Positions 1 through 37,112 of a stretch of 64,000 bases of DNA are shown one piece after another (within the stretch, counting starts at the first letter, position 1; every line of letters starts with the position of its first letter). Under the pieces are notes generated by a model. The model did no database searches. It was not told where the DNA came from and saw only the letters and a list, made by a program, of their open reading frames with translations. This stretch comes from Escherichia coli (GTDB lineage: Bacteria > Pseudomonadota > Gammaproteobacteria > Enterobacterales > Enterobacteriaceae): assembly GCF_050920415.1 (NCBI RefSeq), contig NZ_CP169309.1; one strand, given 5' to 3'. The translations under genes were made by a program, and so were the position numbers.

Positions 1-195
1 CAGGCTGCCGTTGTGCTGTAACGCCAGCGCGTCACTATTACGTAAGCCGTCCGGGGTCTTTTCGCTGCCAGAGGCGACCGGTTTATAACCTGCCGTCCGA
101 TAACCTGCTGCCTTCGCGGCTTGTAAAAGTGCACAACTGGCGACAGTTTTCCCCACTTCGGTATCCGTTCCGGTGACAAAATAACGTTTACTCAC
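1..195 (-). CDS. bioD: dethiobiotin synthetase BioD, N-terminal part only (gene runs off the window start)
   Basis: Minus-strand translation from GTG at 193-195 reads [42 protein letters not shown]; overlaps bioC stop as expected for bioBFCD operon. Confidence 0.85.
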
Positions 196-943
196 GAGCA
201 ATCACTCCCAAAAAAAGATGATACGTCAGAGGATATCGCCCCTGTTGTTGCGGCCAGGCCAGTTGCAATCGCTGCAACTGCGAACGCGTTAATATTCGTG
301 GGTAGCGCCCTTCATGAAGATGCGTGGCACCGATGCCTTTCAGCGAACGCATGGCACTGAGCGCATCAGCAAACCACAGCGTGATGGGCTGAATATGATG
401 TTGATAATGCACGCTGTTCAGCGACTGTTCGATTTCATCTGGCGGTAAAAAGCGATTAGCATGCGGGCGCTCGTCCACCGCCTGCCACGCCTGATGCAAT
501 TCAGGGAGCGATCCCTGCACCAGCGTGGTAAACGCGACCACGCCTCCGGGGCGCACCACGCGATACAGCTCGCGAAGTGCCGTGGATAAATTACCGCACC
601 ACTGCACCGCGAGATTGCTCCATGCAAGATCGAAGGTTGCAGTCGCTAACGGCAGGGATTCGATATCTCCCGCCAGATAATGGTCTGCGGCATCCTTCTG
701 GCGTGCCTGAACAAGCATTGGCGGCGAGAGATCTAACGCTGTCACCTGCGCGTGACGTTCCCGCCAGTGGCGACTCATCCAGCCAGGTCCACAACCCGCA
801 TCCAGTACGTGGGTGTATTTACGCTGTGGGAGCATTGCCAGTAAGACGTCAGCACTCTGGCGCTGTAGATCCGCATGTTGCTCATAATGTGCGGCTGCCC
901 GACCAAATGCCGCAGCAATGGCTTGTTTATTAACCGTTGCCAT
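188..943 (-). CDS. bioC: malonyl-ACP O-methyltransferase BioC
   Basis: ORF 188..982; product [29 protein letters not shown]... matches BioC; start placed at internal Met (MATVNK). Confidence 0.9.
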
Positions 944-2084
944 GCAGCACCTCCAGCAGACGGTCGATATCCTGCATTTCATGCGCGGCGGTTAGCGTTA
1001 AGCGCAGTCGCGCAGTACCAGCGGGTACGGTTGGCGGGCGAATCGCCGTGACCCAGCAGCCTTGCTGGCGCAGTTTTTCTGCCAGTTGTAACGCACGGCT
1101 GTTATCACCGACAATCAATGGCTGGATGGCGCTGTATGAATCAGCAAGCGTAAACGGCAAATCCTGTACTCCGGCACGAAAACGCGTGATGAGTGCCGCC
1201 AGTTTTTCGCGCCGTGCATCACCCTCATCACGGCGAATGACCGCCAGCGACGCACGTAATGCCTGCGCCTGAGCGGGCGGCATACTGGTGCTGTAAATAA
1301 GATGGCGGGCAAATTGCAGTAGATAATCCGCCACCGTATCGGAGCAAAGCACCGCTGCCCCGCTGACGCCAAATCCTTTGCCAAAAGTCACCACCAGCAA
1401 TTCTGGTTTTACCTTTTGCAGCCAGCAGTTGCCGCGCCCCTGTTCACCGATAACACCCGTGCCGTGGGCATCATCGACCATCAACCAGCCATTGTGCTGT
1501 TGCGTTACCTGCTGGATTTCCGCCAGTGGCGCACTATCGCCGTCCATGCTGAACACGCCTTCTGTCACCACCAGTTGCTGCCCCGGACAGGGGGAAGCAA
1601 GCAGTCGCGCCAGATGAGCGACATCGTTATGGGTAAAACGGCGAAGCTGCGACGGGCTTAAACTGGCAGCTTCAAGCAATGAGGCGTGACTCAGCCGATC
1701 GGCAACAATACGGTCCTCTTTCGCCGTCATCGCGGTAATGACTGCCTGGTTAGCGGCAAAACCAGAGATAAACAGCAGTGCCCGCGAATAGCCCAGCCAC
1801 TCGGCCAGTTCTTCTTCCAGCGCCTGATGCGCCATGCTATAACCGCTGACGTGACCGGAACCGCCACTACCGACGCCAAATTGTTCCGCACCCTGCTTCC
1901 ATGCACGAATGATGTCCGGATGATGGCTTAAGCCGAGGTAATCATTGCTGGAAAAGTTCAGATACTGGCGATCATCCACCACCAGCCAGCGTCCGGCCCC
2001 TTGCGCCACCGGATAACGGCGACGCAGGGCATCGGCAGTACGCCGCGCATCGAGCGCCGCGTTGATTTTCTCCTGCCAGCTCAT
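930..2084 (-). CDS. bioF: 8-amino-7-oxononanoate synthase BioF
   Basis: 384-aa [18 protein letters not shown]...; PLP aminotransferase class II; operon position. Confidence 0.93.
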
Positions 2085-3121
2085 AGTGCTGCCGCGTTGT
2101 AATATTCGTCAGTGTCCGGGGTCATCAGCGCCTGTTCAAGACGTTGCTGTTGTTCGTTATCGCCCGCCAGCACGGCGGTTTGCTGCGGATTTAACCCCAG
2201 TTTGCGGAACAGTTGCAGGTCTTTATCTTCTTCCGGATTCGGTGTGGTCAGCAATTTGCAACCGTAGAAAATCGAGTTTGCGCCAGCCATAAAGCACATC
2301 GCCTGAGTCTGTTCGTTCATCTGCTCGCGTCCGGCAGAAAGGCGCACGTATGAGGTCGGCATCATGATCCGCGCTACGGCAATGGTGCGAATAAAATCAA
2401 AGGCATCGACATCATCGTTATCCGCCAGCGGCGTGCCTTTCACCTTCACCAGCATGTTGATTGGTACGCTTTCCGGCGGCGTCGGCAGGTTTGCCAGTTG
2501 CAGCAATAATCCGGCGCGATCTTTTACCGTTTCGCCTAAGCCAACAATGCCACCTGAGCAGACTTTGATCCCGGCATCGCGCACTTTTTCCAGCGTGTCG
2601 AGACGTTCCTGATAAGTGCGTGTGGTGATGATATTGCCGTAAAACTCCGGCGAGGTGTCGAGGTTGTGGTTGTAGTAATCCAGGCCGGCGTTCGCGAGGC
2701 GCTGCGCCTGAGATTCACTCAACGTGCCCAGCGTCATACACGCCTCCAGGCCCATCGCTTTTACCCCCTGCACCATCTGTTCCAGGTACGGCATATCGCG
2801 TTCGTGGGGGTTCTTCCACGCCGCGCCCATGCAAAAACGCGTCGATCCCGCCGCTTTCGCTTTACGCGCCGACTCCAGCACCTGTTCAACTTCCATCAAC
2901 CGCTCAGCTTCCAGTCCGGTTTTATAACGCGAGCTTTGCGGGCAGTATTTGCAATCTTCCGGACAAGCTCCGGTTTTAATTGACAGCAAAGTACTGACCT
3001 GCACCTGACGAGGATCGAAATGCTGACGATGCACCTGCTGCGCTTCAAACAGCAGATCCAGCAACGGTTTTTCAAATAATTCTGTGACTTGCGACAATGT
3101 CCAGCGTGGGTGGTGAGCCAT
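2081..3121 (-). CDS. bioB: biotin synthase BioB (radical SAM)
   Basis: 346-aa [44 protein letters not shown]... with CPEDCKYC cluster motif. Confidence 0.95.
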
Positions 3122-3166
3122 GGGGCTTCTCCAAAACGTGTTTTTTGTTGTTAATTCGGTGTAGAC

Positions 3167-3200
3167 TTGTAAACCTAAATCTTTTCAATTTGGTTTACAA
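3167..3200. promoter_or_regulatory. bio operator (BirA binding palindrome) in divergent bioA/bioBFCD control region
   Basis: Inverted repeat TTGTAAACC-N16-GGTTTACAA between bioB and bioA starts. Confidence 0.7.
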
Positions 3201-3207
3201 GTCGATT

Positions 3208-4497
3208 ATGACAACGGACGATCTTGCCTTTGACCAACGCCATATCTGGCACCCATACACATCCATGACCTCCCCGCTACCGGTTTATCCGGTGGCGAGC
3301 GCCGAAGGTTGCGAGCTAATTTTGTCTGACGGCAGACGCCTGGTTGACGGTATGTCGTCCTGGTGGGCGGCGATCCACGGCTACAATCACCCGCAGCTCA
3401 ATGCGGCAATGAAGTCGCAAATTGATGCCATGTCGCATGTGATGTTTGGCGGTATCACCCATGCGCCCGCTGTCGAGCTGTGCCGCAAACTGGTGGCAAT
3501 GACGCCGCAACCGCTGGAATGCGTTTTTCTCGCGGACTCCGGCTCCGTAGCGGTGGAAGTGGCGATGAAAATGGCGTTGCAGTACTGGCAAGCCAAAGGC
3601 GAAGCGCGCCAGCGTTTTCTGACCTTCCGCAATGGTTATCATGGCGATACCTTTGGCGCGATGTCGGTGTGCGATCCAGACAACTCAATGCACAGCCTGT
3701 GGAAAGGCTATCTGCCAGAAAACCTGTTTGCTCCCGCGCCGCAAAGCCGCATGGATGGCGAATGGGATGAACGCGATATGGTGGGCTTCGCACGTCTGAT
3801 GGCGGCGCATCGTCATGAAATCGCGGCGGTGATCATTGAACCGATTGTTCAGGGCGCTGGCGGAATGCGCATGTACCATCCGGAATGGTTAAAACGAATC
3901 CGCAAAATGTGCGATCGTGAAGGTATCTTGCTGATTGCTGACGAGATAGCCACCGGTTTTGGTCGTACCGGCAAACTGTTTGCCTGCGAACATGCGGGGA
4001 TCGCGCCGGACATTTTGTGCCTCGGTAAAGCCTTAACCGGCGGTACGATGACCCTTTCCGCCACGCTCACTACACGCGAGGTTGCGGAAACCATCAGTAA
4101 CGGTGAAGCTGGCTGCTTTATGCATGGGCCTACTTTTATGGGCAATCCACTGGCCTGCGCGGCAGCAAACGCCAGCCTGGCCATTATCGAATCTGGCGAC
4201 TGGCAGCAGCAGGTAGCGACTATTGAAGTACAGCTGCGCGAGCAACTCACACCCGCACGTGACGCCGAAATGGTTGCCGATGTGCGCGTACTGGGGGCAA
4301 TCGGCGTGGTCGAAACCACTCATCCGGTGAATATGGCGGCGCTGCAAAAATTCTTTGTCGAACAGGGTGTCTGGATCCGGCCTTTTGGCAAACTGATTTA
4401 CCTGATGCCGCCCTATATTATTCTCCCGCAACAGTTGCAACGTCTGACCGCAGCGGTTAACCGCGCGGTACAGGATGAAACATTTTTTTGCCAATAA
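3208..4497 (+). CDS. bioA: adenosylmethionine-8-amino-7-oxononanoate aminotransferase BioA
   Basis: ORF 3097..4497; true start at ATG 3208 ([20 protein letters not shown]...), 429 aa. Confidence 0.95.
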
Positions 4498-31954: not shown

Positions 31955-32012
31955 ATGTAAGTATTTCCTTAACAAATAAGAAGTTATGCGCATCAACTTA
32001 TGCGCGTTGTAT

Positions 32013-32056
32013 TCCCGCATTTCGGCGGGAATGAGGACCATGACTGTTAAAGAGCG
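32013..32056 (-). promoter_or_regulatory. nutR (boxA CGCTCTTTAACA + boxB hairpin TCCCGCCGAAATGCGGGA)
   Basis: Read on minus strand just downstream of cro; boxB identical to the nutL copy. Confidence 0.7.
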
Positions 32057-32063
32057 GTGTTAC

Positions 32064-32288
32064 TTATGCTGCCTGATTCGGTTTTGGAAACAGGTGTGGC
32101 AAATCGGGGCGAATTTCGTAAGCCTTGATCTGCCCTCCAGTGGCGTTAACGATGGCGGTAACTTTCTCTGGAGAGACCAATCCGCCTTTCAGCCATTTGT
32201 GTACTGCTGGCTGCGTTACACCACACTTGTCGGCAAGGCGCTTTTGGCTACCGACAATTTTCAAGGCTCGTTGAATTACTAAATTCAT
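32064..32288 (-). CDS. Cro-like HTH repressor
   Basis: ORF 32064..32309; MNLVIQRALKIVGSQKRLADKCGVTQPAVHKWLKGG...; divergent from repressor gene; start chosen by SD spacing. Confidence 0.7.
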   Translation of the reverse strand: MNLVIQRALKIVGSQKRLADKCGVTQPAVHKWLKGGLVSPEKVTAIVNATGGQIKAYEIRPDLPHLFPKPNQAA

Positions 32289-32312: not shown

Positions 32313-32390
32313 TTATAACCAAAGATAACTCAAGTTATAAAAAATAGCAATAACCTTTGTTATTTTACTTTGGATAACCGTAGTTATAGA
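32313..32390. promoter_or_regulatory. OR operator cluster with pR/pRM: three 14-bp palindromes ATAAC-N4-GTTAT
   Basis: ataactcaagttat (32325-32338), ataacctttgttat (32350-32363), ataaccgtagttat (32374-32387); putative pR -35 TTGCTA / -10 TATCTT on minus strand. Confidence 0.65.
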
Positions 32391-32399
32391 TTTGTGGGT

Positions 32400-33107
32400 A
32401 TGAAAACATTCGCAGAAAGACTAAATGCAGCCATGAGCTTAGCTGGGGTATCACAATCACAGCTTGCAGACATGGTTGGAATATCTCAGCCAGCCATACA
32501 GAAGATGTCGTCCGGTAAAACAAACGGATCTCGCAAGATGGTTGAATTAGCCAATGCTTTAAAAGTGCGCCCTGAATGGCTTAGTTCTGGTATTGGTGAA
32601 ATGAGGGATGGTGCACATGAAGAACCATCCAATGTCCGTGAGTCATCTTTAAAAGCTGTGGTATGGGAAGACATTAAAAGAAACGATGACGAGTTTGTTG
32701 CGTTGCCTCTTCTTAACGTTTCGCTTTCAGCTGGAAGCGGTAGCTGCGAGCTAGAGGAATCATCGGAGTTCTCTTTGGTTTTCAGAAAGCACTATCTGAA
32801 AAAGATGGGAGTATCTGAAAGATCAGCCAAGCTAGTTAGGGTTGTAGGGCAAAGCATGGAACCTACGCTTCACGATGGCGATGTTGTTGGTGTTAACACG
32901 CAAGATACCACAATCAGAGATGGTAAAACCTACGCTATTTGCCAGTCTGATTTGTTACGAGTAAAAACATTAATCGCCACCCCTACATCGGTGATAATCA
33001 GATCAATAAATCGCGAAGAGTACCCGGATGAAGTAATGGATAGAGATGAATTTCATGAAACCGTAAGGATTATTGGCAGAGTATTCTGGTCGTCTCATAG
33101 TTGGTAA
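32400..33107 (+). CDS. CI-type prophage repressor (N-terminal HTH, C-terminal LexA/S24 autocleavage domain)
   Basis: ORF 32370..33107; MKTFAERLNAAMSLAGVSQSQLADMVGISQPAIQKM... and C-terminal GQSMEPTLHDGDVVGV motif. Confidence 0.85.
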   Translation: MKTFAERLNAAMSLAGVSQSQLADMVGISQPAIQKMSSGKTNGSRKMVELANALKVRPEWLSSGIGEMRDGAHEEPSNVRESSLKAVVWEDIKRNDDEFVALPLLNVSLSAGSGSCELEESSEFSLVFRKHYLKKMGVSERSAKLVRVVGQSMEPTLHDGDVVGVNTQDTTIRDGKTYAICQSDLLRVKTLIATPTSVIIRSINREEYPDEVMDRDEFHETVRIIGRVFWSSHSW

Positions 33108-33147
33108 CCGATAATCAGAAGAAGACTTACGGAAGTGCGGAGGGATA

Positions 33148-33444
33148 ATGGAATTTCTGATAGTTTTTGTTGTTGTTTTGGTCATCATTCTTTTTGTTTT
33201 GCTAAGCATTAGCAAAAAGCTATCTCAAATGATTGAACATAGCTCTAATCGCGCAAAAGAAGAAGAGCATCTAATTGATATAAAAGAGATTCTCTCTGAT
33301 ATAAAAATCACATTAGATGAAATAAAATACACAACAGATCTAATTGAACAGTATAAAATACCAACCCCAAACGAGAGAAAATCAATAGATCAATATCGTA
33401 TTGACTTAGAAATCGACGAAATGCTAAGCAACAGAAAGGACTAA
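33148..33444 (+). CDS. 98-aa single-pass membrane protein co-transcribed with repressor (candidate superinfection-exclusion/abortive-infection moron)
   Basis: SD GGAGGG then ATG 33148, 40 nt after cI stop; MEFLIVFVVVLVIILFVLLSISKK... TM helix then charged helical tail; very AT-rich; terminator follows. Confidence 0.6.
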   Translation: MEFLIVFVVVLVIILFVLLSISKKLSQMIEHSSNRAKEEEHLIDIKEILSDIKITLDEIKYTTDLIEQYKIPTPNERKSIDQYRIDLEIDEMLSNRKD

Positions 33445-33447
33445 AAA

Positions 33448-33474
33448 CACCCGGCCTCAGCGCCGGGTTTTTCT
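33448..33474 (+). terminator. rho-independent terminator after the cI-linked moron
   Basis: Stem CCCGGC/GCCGGG with 5-nt loop followed by TTTTTCTTTC. Confidence 0.65.
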
Positions 33475-33597
33475 TTCCCTGCCGTTCACCATCCAATCAA
33501 CCATCCTCATCATAGACAAGCATCAAGCCAAAGGTAACACCTTCACCCAGCACGCAAGCCCTCAAACACCAATCAATCAGCAACATTTACAAAAATA

Positions 33598-33690
33598 AAA
33601 TACCTTTGTTATCCATCACTTATAACTTATTTACCACAAAATATAAATTAGGTTATTGACCACACCTATAACCTAAGTTATCTTTAAGCC
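33598..33690. promoter_or_regulatory. OL operators and pL promoter (-35 TTGACC 33656-33661, -10 TATCTT 33679-33684)
   Basis: Operator palindrome ataacctaagttat (33668-33681) overlapping spacer and -10; second half-matching site atacctttgttat near 33600. Confidence 0.6.
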
Positions 33691-33728: not shown

Positions 33729-33769
33729 AGGCTCTTTAACATTGATGGGATTGTCCCGCCGAAATGCGG
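33729..33769 (+). promoter_or_regulatory. nutL (boxA GCTCTTTAACA + boxB hairpin TCCCGCCGAAATGCGGGA)
   Basis: Between pL and N start; same boxA/boxB as nutR. Confidence 0.7.
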
Positions 33770-33878
33770 GAACCAAAGAGTAGTTGGCTTTGGGGTGACG
33801 TGAAGTGCAGCTGCACGACGGCAACCGGAAGATAAGCACCCGGCGCGTCACCGCCAAAGTCAATCATCGGAGGTCAAC

Positions 33879-34184
33879 ATGGCAGTAGTCATTACATATC
33901 TGGCTGACGATAACGCCAGAAATCGCCGCAGAGCACGCAGGCAGGCTCAACGTGAACAGGCAATGCAAGAACAGCGACTGGCGCGAAAGATTGCGCTAAA
34001 GCTCTCTGGTTGCGTCAGAGCAGATAAAGCAGCATCACTCGGAAGCCTTCGCTGCAAGAAGGTAGAAGAAGTCGAGCGTAAACAGAACCGTATTTACTAC
34101 CGAAAGCCACGGAGTGAAATGGGTGTGACATGCTCAGGCCGCCAGAAGCAACGCGGAAAATCAATTCCAGCTTATTACGATTGA
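33879..34184 (+). CDS. N: antitermination protein N (arginine-rich motif; phage 21 N-like)
   Basis: 101-aa ORF; NARNRRRARRQAQREQ arginine-rich N-terminus; LARKIALKLSGCVRADKAASLGSLRCKK...EVERKQNRIYY resembles phage 21 N as recalled. Confidence 0.7.
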   Translation: MAVVITYLADDNARNRRRARRQAQREQAMQEQRLARKIALKLSGCVRADKAASLGSLRCKKVEEVERKQNRIYYRKPRSEMGVTCSGRQKQRGKSIPAYYD

Positions 34185-34794: not shown

Positions 34795-34932
34795 GATGGA
34801 GGATATATGAGTGAAGTAACAGATTTAGTTGTTATTGAAAAAGCAAATGCAATGACTGTATTTCAGTCTGCCGACCAGATTGAAGAAATCTGAACCGCCC
34901 CGGGTTTCCTGGAGAGTGTTTTATCTGTGAAC

Positions 34933-35820
34933 TCAGGCTGCCAGATCATTGTTTCCGATGGAAGCATAATAAGCTTTTTCTGCTTCTGCCGGAGGAGTAT
35001 GGCCCAGCCTTCCCAGCAATCGTCGATTGTTATACCAGTCCACCCACGTGAGTGTGGCCAGTTCCACTTCTGCACGGTTTTTCCAGCTCTTACGGTGTAT
35101 TACCTCCGCTTTGTAAAGACCATTGATGCTCTCAGCCATCGCGTTGTCATACGAGTCGCCTGTACTCCCTGTTGATGCCAGCAGTTTTGCTTCTTTTAGT
35201 CGCTCCGTATAGGCCAGTGACACATACTGAGAGCCTTTATCGCTGTGATGGATGGTGCCAGACGGACGACGGGCCCACAACGCCTGCTCCAGCGCATCCA
35301 GCACGAATGTCGTTTCCATAGACGATGAGACCCGCCACCCCACGATGTATCCGGCAAACACATCAATGATGAACGCCACATAGACGAAGCCCTGCCATGT
35401 GCTGACGTAAGTAAAATCAGCCACCCACAGCTGGTCAGGACGTTCTGCCACGAACTGACGGTTTACGCGGTCACCTGTGGCAACGGTTTTCCGGCTGACG
35501 GTAGTGCGGACCTTTTTACCCCGGAGAACACCGGCAAGTCCCATAACCGCCATGAGGCGCGCCACTGTACATCTGGCCACCCTGATTCCTTCCCGTAACA
35601 ACTGACGCCAGACTTTACGCACACCGTACACCTGATGATTTTCATCGTATACGCGCTGTATCTCTCTCTTCAGCCAGTCATCGCGCTGCGCACGGGCACT
35701 GCGTTTATCAGGATGATGCCGCTGCTGCTGACAATGGTAATACGTTGACGGGGCGATATGCAGTTCACTGCATACCGGTCCGACCCCGTACTGCTCACGC
35801 AGCTTATCCAGCAGTGGCAT
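34933..35820 (-). CDS. IS3-family transposase OrfB (DDE integrase domain)
   Basis: 295-aa ORF with DDE-type catalytic region; overlaps orfA end as expected for programmed -1 frameshift fusion. Confidence 0.85.
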   Translation of the reverse strand: MPLLDKLREQYGVGPVCSELHIAPSTYYHCQQQRHHPDKRSARAQRDDWLKREIQRVYDENHQVYGVRKVWRQLLREGIRVARCTVARLMAVMGLAGVLRGKKVRTTVSRKTVATGDRVNRQFVAERPDQLWVADFTYVSTWQGFVYVAFIIDVFAGYIVGWRVSSSMETTFVLDALEQALWARRPSGTIHHSDKGSQYVSLAYTERLKEAKLLASTGSTGDSYDNAMAESINGLYKAEVIHRKSWKNRAEVELATLTWVDWYNNRRLLGRLGHTPPAEAEKAYYASIGNNDLAA

Positions 35821-36146
35821 TATTTTTTCCAGAGGCGGTCGAACTCCGCCTTCGCAAAATAAGCGGAAGCCTGGCGAAGGATATCGTTACTGCGGCGCAG
35901 TTCACGATTTTCACGTTCCAGCTCTTTCAGACGCTGACGTTCAGCGGTGGTGAGCCCACCATCACCGCTCCCGGTATCCCTCTCATGCTGGCGAACCCAG
36001 ACACGCAGAGTCTCTGGCGTACAGCCAATCTTTGGAGCAATGGAACAAATTGCCGCCCATTGTGAGTCATATTCGCCCTGACTTTCCAGAACCATACGAA
36101 CTGCGCGTTGACGGACTTCGGGGGAAAAACGAGTATTTTTAGTCAT
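35820..36146 (-). CDS. IS3-family transposase OrfA (HTH)
   Basis: 108-aa [60 protein letters not shown]... Confidence 0.85.
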
Positions 36147-37112
36147 CCTGTTTACCTCTTTCTCAGGAAGTTTAGTCTCCAGGATTTCCGGGGCGGTTCA
36201 ATCCTTCAAAAGGTTGAACGTGAAGTTATGTCCTTTGTGCCTGATATCACAACGGCAAAGGGCAGAAAGGAGATCGCTTCTCTGGCGTATAAAGTTGCGC
36301 AGACGAAAACATATCTCGATGGTCTTGGCAAAGACCTTGTTGCTGAACTGAAGGAAATTCCAAAGCTAATTGATGCCAACCGCAAGACAGTGCGCGATCG
36401 CCTTGATGAGCTGAAAGCCAAGGCACGCCAGCCTCTTACTGATTATGAGGAAGAACAGGCGCGGATTAAAGCCGAAGAAGAAGCTAAGGCAGCAGCTGAA
36501 GCTCTCGCAAAGCAAATTGAGTCTGACCATGAAATAGCGATTTTGATGGATCGCGAATTTGACCGCCAAAGAGAAGAGGCAAGACTCAAAGCTGAGCAGG
36601 AAAAGCGAGAGCATGAAGAACGCTTAAAAAGAGAAGCTGAAGAGAAAGCAAGAGCAGAAGCCGAAGCAAAGGCAAAAGCCGAAATTGAAGCAGCCGCAAG
36701 GCGAGAAGCAGAAGCTAAGGCCGCAGCGGAACGTGCAGAGCGTGAACGCATTGAGGCCGAGCAACGAGCACAGCGCGAAGCAAAAGAGGCAGCAGAACGA
36801 GCTGAAAGAGAAAAGCAGGCAGCAATTGAAGCAGAACGCAGAAAAGCACAGGAGGAGGCTGAACGAATCCGTCGCGAGGCTGAAGCAAAAGAGCAAGCCA
36901 GAATCGCAGAAGAAAAAAGAATCAAGGACGAAGAAGAGCACAGAGCAAAGGATAAAGCTCACCGGAAAGAAGTAAATAACAAAATACTTGCTGACCTTAT
37001 CAAGGTTGGCGCATCAGAAGATGTTGCTAAAAATATCATAACAGCCATCGTAAAAGGCGAAGTATTCGCAACAAAAATAACCTACTAATAAAACCAACAT
37101 AAGGAACCACCC

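Follow-up and report, generated by a model that had tools for sequence, protein, structure and literature searches.

The gene behind the repressor

We analysed a 64,000-nucleotide (nt) stretch of an Escherichia coli genome (contig NZ_CP169309.1 of assembly GCF_050920415.1), hereafter the window, within which lies a lambdoid prophage. Inside the immunity region of this prophage a small gene directly follows the cI-type repressor gene; we refer to it as ORF98, an open reading frame (ORF) of 98 amino acids (aa), the product of which is listed in RefSeq as a hypothetical protein (WP_000394869). An earlier annotation made from the letters of the window alone, i.e., the sequence-only reading, had placed ORF98 in the position that rexA and rexB occupy in phage lambda, and had proposed it as a candidate gene for superinfection exclusion or abortive infection. 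The gene and the features that belong to it are as follows:

32400..33107 (+): cI-type repressor, 235 aa, helix-turn-helix plus S24 autopeptidase (Peptidase_S24)
33110..33580: variable cargo slot, from the cI stop to the left operators (OL), replaced wholesale in prophages of the same immunity type
33138..33480 (+): mobile cassette of 343 nt, comprising Shine-Dalgarno (SD) sequence, ORF98 and terminator, delimited by DNA comparison with a Citrobacter prophage (locus L002)
33139-33144 (+): SD sequence GGAGGG
33148..33444 (+): ORF98, 98 aa, ATG start, member of phrog_18389
33154..33210 (+): predicted N-terminal transmembrane (TM) helix, residues 3-21, with no lysine or arginine (K/R) before it and KK directly after it
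33277..33441 (+): predicted conserved acidic cytoplasmic helical hairpin, residues 44-98, motif IKYTTDxIExYK(L/I)PTPxERKxIDQ
33449-33474 (+): intrinsic terminator after ORF98, the equivalent of tIMM, which scores as a terminator on the minus strand too

The layout described by the sequence-only reading, i.e., a 98-aa ORF beginning 40 nt after the cI stop (33107), preceded by the SD sequence GGAGGG and followed at once by a terminator, was confirmed by the coordinates and by RNA folding. The 40-nt spacer holds no significant RNA structure (folding z = 0.33). The terminator stem (33449-33468) has 7 base pairs (bp), 6 of them G-C, and a 6-nt loop, and is followed by the T-run TTTTTCTTT; its folding energy is -13.7 kcal/mol (z = -3.2), with none of 200 shuffles being equally stable. 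The proposed rexAB-equivalent position also held, given that the gene lies between cI and OL, inside the immunity region, with its terminator before OL and ~100 nt of CA-rich non-coding DNA between the two.

It had further been suggested that the gene is AT-rich in the manner of a moron, and that its G+C content should be computed against its flanks. This comparison bore the suggestion out, with 30.6% G+C in ORF98 vs 43.4% in cI, 50.7% in the N gene and 49.5% in the window as a whole. ORF98 is the most AT-rich stretch of the window, and only 0.03% of 297-nt windows are as AT-rich. The only promoter-like site near the gene (33073-33101; 9/12 matches) falls within sequence specific to cI and is no more than chance would give in the region, and no pLIT-like internal promoter is evident within the cassette (33138-33480). 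In the sense of Juhala and Hendrix, ORF98 thus has the deviant composition, the presence/absence distribution and the terminator of a moron, but not a promoter of its own. An antisense ORF at 33308-33496 (minus strand, 62 aa, TTG start) was considered as a coding alternative and rejected, as the substitutions found in relatives fit the plus-strand frame. At ORF98 we found neither a conserved antisense ORF nor an antitoxin RNA or partner gene, the Rfam search being negative.

A small family of predicted membrane-anchored proteins

Along its full length the ORF98 product matches phrog_18389, a group of unknown function (E = 1.1e-61; residues 1-98 on profile positions 1-98 of 98), which the distant relatives (P0014-P0025) match too. 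Relatives were sought in 5.8 billion clustered proteins and 1.84 billion cluster representatives, and only a small family was recovered, consisting of close copies in E. coli, members of 65-77% identity from Citrobacter and from assembled public sequencing runs, and further relatives of 30-48% identity, including ones from Yersinia frederiksenii and one from Pelagicoccus. Where synonymous sites were unsaturated, the pairwise ratio of non-synonymous to synonymous substitution rates (dN/dS) was 0.10-0.23 and, on the strength of these ratios, ORF98 is a genuine gene under purifying selection. Outside this family little was matched. Pfam gave no family at E <= 0.001 for the ORF98 product, and a single match at this threshold when 21 family members were searched individually, of one member to DUF2721. 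There was no match in NCBIfam; a sequence-profile search of the PDB returned only designed coiled coils and TM noise from MotB, and Foldseek with the AlphaFold2 model found no matches in BFVD or the PDB.

The protein has a hydrophobic segment at residues 3-21, FLIVFVVVLVIILFVLLSI, with a mean Kyte-Doolittle value of 3.67, and hydropathy indicates no second one; the tail behind it carries 18 aspartates or glutamates and 13 K/R. This arrangement recurs in 21/21 aligned members, each with one hydrophobic segment at the extreme N-terminus and none thereafter, no K/R in the 0-8 residues before the helix and 1-4 K/R in the 15 residues that follow. According to the positive-inside rule, a basic flank marks the cytoplasmic side of a membrane helix. 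Because of this rule and the charge bias, the segment is predicted to be an N-out/C-in anchor rather than a signal peptide in all 21 members, with a cytoplasmic helical tail; the single N-terminal TM helix and charged cytoplasmic tail foreseen by the sequence-only reading therefore fit the whole alignment. That the segment is a cleavable signal peptide, or that the tail is periplasmic, was rejected, since no member has a basic n-region and all have K/R after the helix; position, the logic of expression and charge bias led us to dismiss an i-spanin or a holin as well.

The AlphaFold2 model, built with the family alignment, consists of a helix (residues 2-68), a loop (69-73, YKIPT) and a second helix (74-97), with a mean predicted local distance difference test (pLDDT) score of 79.6. 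In this model the long helix 2-68 would extend from the membrane into the cytoplasm, with 74-97 as the return helix. Residues 44-98 have a net charge of -5. In the 21-member alignment Y69, P72, D81 and E88 are invariant and T63, D64, I66, E67, E76 and R77 near-invariant, so that conservation is highest at the tip of the hairpin. The C-terminal domain is the most constrained part of the protein and the linker between TM helix and hairpin is variable, as is reflected in the regional ratios of non-synonymous to synonymous differences (pN/pS), which are lowest in the C-terminal domain (0.11-0.24), higher in the TM helix (0.29-0.42) and highest in the linker (0.41-0.75).

A mobile cassette behind different repressors

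The stretch 33138-33480 is the sole block (80% identity) common to the region and a Citrobacter freundii prophage (L002), which has a lambda-like cI only 22% identical to that of the window; the two ORF98 proteins are 77% identical. We examined 44 contexts in all, i.e., eight independent assembly loci and 36 viral contigs from IMG/VR. The relatives examined, down to ~36% identity, all sit directly behind a cI/S24 repressor gene, on the same strand and after a spacer of 12-54 nt, and the examined relatives precede an N gene wherever the contig extends that far. The sequence-only reading had proposed to look for co-occurrence with repressors in other prophages, and such co-occurrence was found in the eight assembly contexts and in 36/36 IMG/VR loci, where all 36 copies are intact. 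All homologous loci have an SD-like purine run upstream of the start codon. Behind the gene, each of the 8 other loci has a GC-rich hairpin, which in all of them except L009 is succeeded by a T-run, and no other non-coding part of the cassette is as well conserved as the terminator.

At least nine repressor types are linked to the gene, and their DNA-binding domains are clearly different. Among eight typed repressors, pairwise similarity is mostly weak or local, with some pairs being 55-64% identical over nearly their full length, and an S24 autocleavage domain is present in all linked lambdoid repressors with Pfam data. Similarity among ORF98 proteins does not track similarity among the cI proteins. 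Judged by these comparisons, ORF98 is horizontally mobile and locked in position to repressors, and a repressor-specific role for it is unlikely.

Only remote relatives (<=35% identity) occur in other, unannotated contexts. Three of these (L012, L014 and L015; proteins P0022, P0025 and P0023; 30-35% identity) keep the motif YKLP...ER...D in non-lambdoid and nearly unannotated surroundings, one of them coming from Pelagicoccus (Verrucomicrobiota); in L012 the gene next to it upstream is lipoprotein-like, with a SHOCT domain. Being present in non-lambdoid relatives, the motif is older and broader than the lambdoid cassette.

In other phages with the cassette a small minus-strand gene (68-75 aa) converges on the cassette terminator, between ORF98 and OL. 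A remnant of such a gene was sought in the window and none was found. The convergent genes, all on the minus strand, are:

L002, 5324-5530 (-): phrog_3975
L003, 4383-4607 (-)
L004, 4733-4960 (-)
L005, 2402-2611 (-): phrog_5948, DUF2767

Expression with the repressor

How the cassette could be transcribed depends on the immunity region around it, which contains, in addition to cI and the cargo slot:

32012-32029 (-): probable boxB of the N-utilisation site nutR, an 18-mer identical to the nutL one, downstream of pR
32064-32288 (-): cro; a cII-like gene is also on the minus strand here
32325..32387: right operator (OR) region between cro and cI, with three ATAAC-N4-GTTAT palindromes at 32325, 32350 and 32374
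33643 and 33668: OL operators, overlapping the pL-like promoter
33656-33684 (+): pL-like promoter TTGACC-17-TATCTT, reading away from ORF98
33755-33772 (+): boxB-like hairpin of nutL (2 matches, 0 expected)
33879..34184 (+): N-like antiterminator, first gene of the pL operon (phrog_271, E = 3e-36)

Since the shared block starts 10 nt before the ATG, there is no room for a promoter in the cassette. For this reason, and because pL, nutL and pR point away from the gene, only transcripts that start upstream of cI, i.e., from the repressor promoters PRM and PRE, could express ORF98, and from this layout we strongly infer that it is co-expressed with cI from these promoters. By analogy with lambda, PRM would be expected at the OR region (32325..32387). 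The operator motif ATAAC-N4-GTTAT occurs 7 times in the window vs 1.37 expected, with the matches clustered at OR and OL. The repressor matches phrog_4 (E = 6e-53) and the CI-like phrog_6201, and is named XRE family transcriptional regulator in RefSeq.

The 18-mer CCCGCCGAAATGCGGGAA, found at 32012-32029 (minus strand) and 33755-33772 (plus strand), could fold into a hairpin with a 5-bp stem and a loop of 6 nt, and the two copies probably serve the N-like antiterminator as boxB in nutR and nutL, respectively. Near nutL, a block at 33787-33859 is 90% identical to the Citrobacter prophage L002, though the cI genes are unrelated.

Further downstream, an IS3-family insertion element (~34900-36150) sits in the early-left operon read from pL (region 34807-37088), with the following parts:

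34933-35820 (-): IS3 orfB
35749-35865: ALIL frameshift pseudoknot, RF01497 (122 bits)
35820-36146 (-): IS3 orfA

This pseudoknot was the sole match in an Rfam scan of the whole window, with nothing at ORF98. The element appears to split a gene for a coiled-coil protein of ~323 aa, the start of which matches 34807-34862 and the rest of which runs to 37088, and among the complete E. coli genomes of the collection none shares the junction (best coverage 87%). Probably the insertion has a polar effect, and it may have left a crippled prophage.

Distribution and alternative cargo in the slot

The cassette is present in 98 of 5,426 complete E. coli genomes (1.8%), as one allele (>=95% identity) and on chromosomes only, with 0/102 cassette places being on plasmids; a matching cI (>=95% identity) is found in 105 complete E. 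coli genomes. Carriers include a Stx1a-converting phage (Shiga toxin, Stx) and O26 strains. In 97 of the 98 carrier genomes at least 80% of the query is covered. The one exception is strain 3CM, where an IS3-family transposase gene lies inside the ORF98 homologue (L056, 2751-4181), leaving an annotated remnant of 75 aa with a new N-terminus (P0010); this is the sole disrupted copy among the 98 genomes.

Some prophages that share this Cro (WP_001054987.1), with cI proteins of 92-99% identity, have other genes in place of positions 33110-33580. In one of them (L006; cI 92% identical, same Cro) homology ends at 33109 and resumes at 33581, and the slot (2746-3810) holds a DUF3024 gene, with a full-length match to the PADLOC candidate PDC-S43 (E = 7e-42), together with a 177-aa ORF (phrog_2602). 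In another with the same Cro (L055) the slot (2754-3260) contains ORFs of 120 aa (phrog_13858) and 42 aa (phrog_12503). In a more distant immunity type (L007; cI 79% identical) there is only a 69-aa minus-strand ORF (2861-3070; phrog_3946). These slot variants form a natural allelic series of uncharacterised candidate lysogen-expressed genes.

Since prophages of this immunity type can have other cargo here, ORF98 is an accessory gene. The sequence-only reading had held that absence of the gene from closely related prophages with an identical immunity region would speak against its proposed function; such absence was formally found, as a minority of the prophages whose cI is 92-99% identical and whose Cro is identical lack the gene, and what it shows is dispensability rather than lack of function. 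On these comparisons ORF98 is dispensable for the immunity module, as expected of cargo, from which non-functionality does not follow. The interval from cI to N in lambdoid phages is known as a mosaic hotspot in which rexAB, bstA and hex are co-transcribed with the repressor (PMC8585504, PMC7067206, PMC3564112).

Two prophages with ORF98 or a homologue also carry exclusion-type genes elsewhere. In E. coli O26 97-3250 (L054, 4256-4567) a 103-aa protein annotated as a superinfection exclusion protein (WP_000776959.1) is encoded further along the pL operon, and L005 has a SieB-family gene past N, on the minus strand (3361-3960). Several exclusion-type genes can thus be stacked in one prophage.

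Proposed role and alternative explanations

Our preferred reading, to which we give roughly an even chance, is that ORF98 may exclude heterologous superinfecting phages and thereby protect the lysogen, a proposal that draws on analogy with the genes of the same slot (rexAB, bstA, hex) and on gp15 of phage HK97. ORF98 would be carried by a moron cassette that has no promoter and occupies the cI-to-OL slot, and it would be read by transcripts from PRM in the lysogen and from PRE during establishment and ending at its own terminator, with the protein being made together with the repressor and not from lytic promoters. The protein would insert in the inner membrane with 2 residues outside, and its long helix would run through the variable linker into the cytoplasm to end in the conserved acidic helix-loop-helix hairpin, the tip of which (TTDxIExYKLPxxxER) is a likely docking surface. 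Action would then take place at the cytoplasmic face of the inner membrane or within the membrane. One option is that ORF98 would interfere with the DNA-delivery conduit of the incoming phage, as has been proposed for HK97 gp15; the other is that the hairpin tip would sense infection, with membrane collapse as a form of abortive infection. More tentatively, we consider that ORF98 could be a stand-alone membrane-tethered anti-phage system of a new mechanistic type, in which the hairpin tip, ~70 Å below the inner membrane, would capture a conserved host factor or one of the incoming phage, and would either block genome delivery from inside or trigger membrane failure.

Several points weigh against exclusion. 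The hairpin motif is under strong purifying selection and is kept even in remote non-lambdoid relatives (Pelagicoccus), and conservation of this strength is less in keeping with an arms race with phages than with a conserved host partner. Almost nothing of the protein is periplasmic, so that any block of DNA entry must act inside the membrane or below it. Furthermore, Hex and RexAB, genes of the same slot, also tune prophage stability (PMC3564112; bioRxiv 10.1101/2021.04.19.439022), and the slot alone is therefore no proof of defence. None of the defence models of PADLOC-DB v2.0.0 matched, the only signal being ZorB at E = 0.009 over the TM helix, which is noise. A tandem dimer (Gly-Ser linker, paired alignment) gave a poor model, with a pLDDT of 51 and a predicted template modelling (pTM) score of 0.36, and oligomerisation is unsupported. 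We found no experiment or public dataset for ORF98 and 0 literature matches to the accession WP_000394869, and phrase searches of the literature returned only general papers on the cI slot. In one prophage, NC-SV, the small RNA svsR lies at the 3' end of a cI gene, but it was not tied to the ORF98 locus.

In a first alternative, ORF98 would modulate the lysis-lysogeny switch or the stability of its own prophage via a general host factor (e.g., RecA*, FtsH/HflKC, ClpXP or Lon), lowering spontaneous induction or favouring establishment. Its conserved and slowly evolving cytoplasmic domain suggests a conserved host partner, by its layout ORF98 is tied exclusively to lysogenic promoters, and the linked lambdoid repressors with Pfam data all have the S24 domain. 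There is also precedent, given that Hex of phage 434, which is co-transcribed with the repressor, cuts RecA-dependent spontaneous induction ~30-fold (PMC3564112), and that RexA and RexB influence the lambda switch (bioRxiv 10.1101/2021.04.19.439022). However, the nine or more repressor types associated with the gene are mostly only weakly similar, unrelated genes replace ORF98 behind near-identical repressors, and so many repressor partners argue that ORF98 is not repressor-specific in the way that Hex appears to be. With the gene also being dispensable for the immunity module, and with remote relatives having no detectable repressor neighbour, we regard an effect on the switch as unlikely.

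A lysogenic-conversion factor that serves host fitness unrelated to phages (envelope stress, transport or stress tolerance) would be in keeping with the many small N-terminally anchored proteins that work in envelope stress and with the persistence of the motif in contexts that are not phage-like (Pelagicoccus and unannotated metagenome contigs), and the moron literature does list benefits other than defence (PMC3594210). Set against this is the distribution of the gene, which in Enterobacterales occurs only in the lambdoid repressor slot and never at plasmid or core-genome sites, and which is rare (the 1.8% of complete E. coli genomes given above). No signal ties ORF98 to any host pathway, and we consider this explanation rather improbable.

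That ORF98 is a small membrane toxin or addiction element (type-I-toxin-like or holin-like) that the lysogen keeps in check, or filler that carries the terminator of the immunity region, is very improbable: the very hydrophobic N-terminal helix, the AT-richness, the conservation of the terminator above all other non-coding parts of the cassette and the lethality of over-expressed full-length 434 Hex from the same slot (PMC3564112) can be cited for it, but a protein of 98 aa with a long conserved soluble acidic domain is unlike toxins of the Hok, Ldr or TisB type, no conserved antisense ORF, antitoxin RNA or partner gene was found, and purifying selection on the protein excludes filler.

Which other phages can attack a lysogen, the Stx-converting phages of pathogenic E. 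coli included, is decided by genes co-expressed with prophage repressors; the slot behind cI is known as a reservoir of such genes but has been poorly catalogued. That this slot holds anti-phage cargo is already known and will not surprise a specialist; what is new is an uncharacterised family and a clean, minimal candidate. The phrog_18389 family is tiny, easy to clone and mutate, and portable between unrelated immunity modules. Should exclusion prove to be its role, ORF98 would represent a minimal membrane-based mechanism and provide a handle on DNA entry or on infection sensing at the cytoplasmic face of the inner membrane. As a stand-alone anti-phage system it would rank with the smallest defence genes that are self-contained, a plug-in without a promoter that suits any cI operon, and if it instead tunes induction, it would bear on the stability of toxin-converting prophages.

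Comparison with known systems

With rexA-rexB of lambda, ORF98 shares the cI-to-OL slot, a terminator just before OL and an accessory status, the genes being replaced in related phages (PMC8585504, PMC7067206). The repressor promoters read rexAB, as the layout suggests they do for ORF98, and RexB is an inner-membrane protein, as ORF98 is predicted to be membrane-anchored. RexB, however, has four TM helices and RexA is a cytoplasmic sensor, whereas ORF98 is 98 aa long with one TM helix; it is the single gene between the cI stop and the terminator, so the two-component layout of RexAB is absent. Neither Pfam nor the 21-member alignment places it in the RexA or RexB family.

The exclusion proteins of P22, SieA and SieB, are likewise expressed from the prophage. 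SieA differs in having three TM helices and 162-164 aa, and is encoded elsewhere in its genome, and ORF98 has no SieB match in Pfam. The sequence-only reading had maintained that the protein resembles neither Rex nor SieB, which stands, as no Pfam or PADLOC family matched; its statement that P22 carries sieB in this slot was wrong. In L005, which has an ORF98 homologue as well, the SieB-family gene is found past N and on the other strand, and ORF98 is therefore not the positional equivalent of SieB.

BstA of the Salmonella prophage BTP1 is, like ORF98, encoded by a single gene directly downstream of cI with its own rho-independent terminator, and is a prophage defence transcribed as an operon from the cI promoter (PMC8585504, PMC7067206). 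It differs in that it has been described at sites of phage DNA replication, with the DNA element aba conferring self-immunity, and not as a membrane protein; PADLOC, Pfam and PHROG gave no link between the two. Hex of phage 434 is also an accessory gene on the PRM transcript with the repressor, and serves both exclusion and lysogen stability (PMC3564112). Its product is of ~17.5 kDa, its ORF overlaps the repressor gene and it appears to be repressor-specific, whereas ORF98 is separate from cI, predicted to be membrane-anchored and associated with many unrelated repressors, a distinction that is drawn from the description of Hex and not from sequence comparison.

In appearance the closest parallel is gp15 of HK97 (YebO-like, 62 aa), which has been demonstrated to act in superinfection exclusion, being expressed from the prophage and blocking genome entry from the inner membrane (PMC3594210, PMC10883804). 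Both proteins start with ME and have an N-terminal TM helix that is flanked by basic residues on its C-terminal side only, followed by a charged helical tail, and both are AT-rich moron cargo directly before a terminator. Homology was not detectable, with hhalign of the family alignment against gp15 giving a probability of 3.3%, and the settings differ, gp15 lying in the tail operon with its own promoter while ORF98 would depend on the promoter of the repressor and has the extra conserved helix-loop-helix. Failing all sequence-membership tests for these families, ORF98 is nevertheless by its setting a repressor-operon accessory gene of the rexAB/bstA/hex class, with the looks of gp15.

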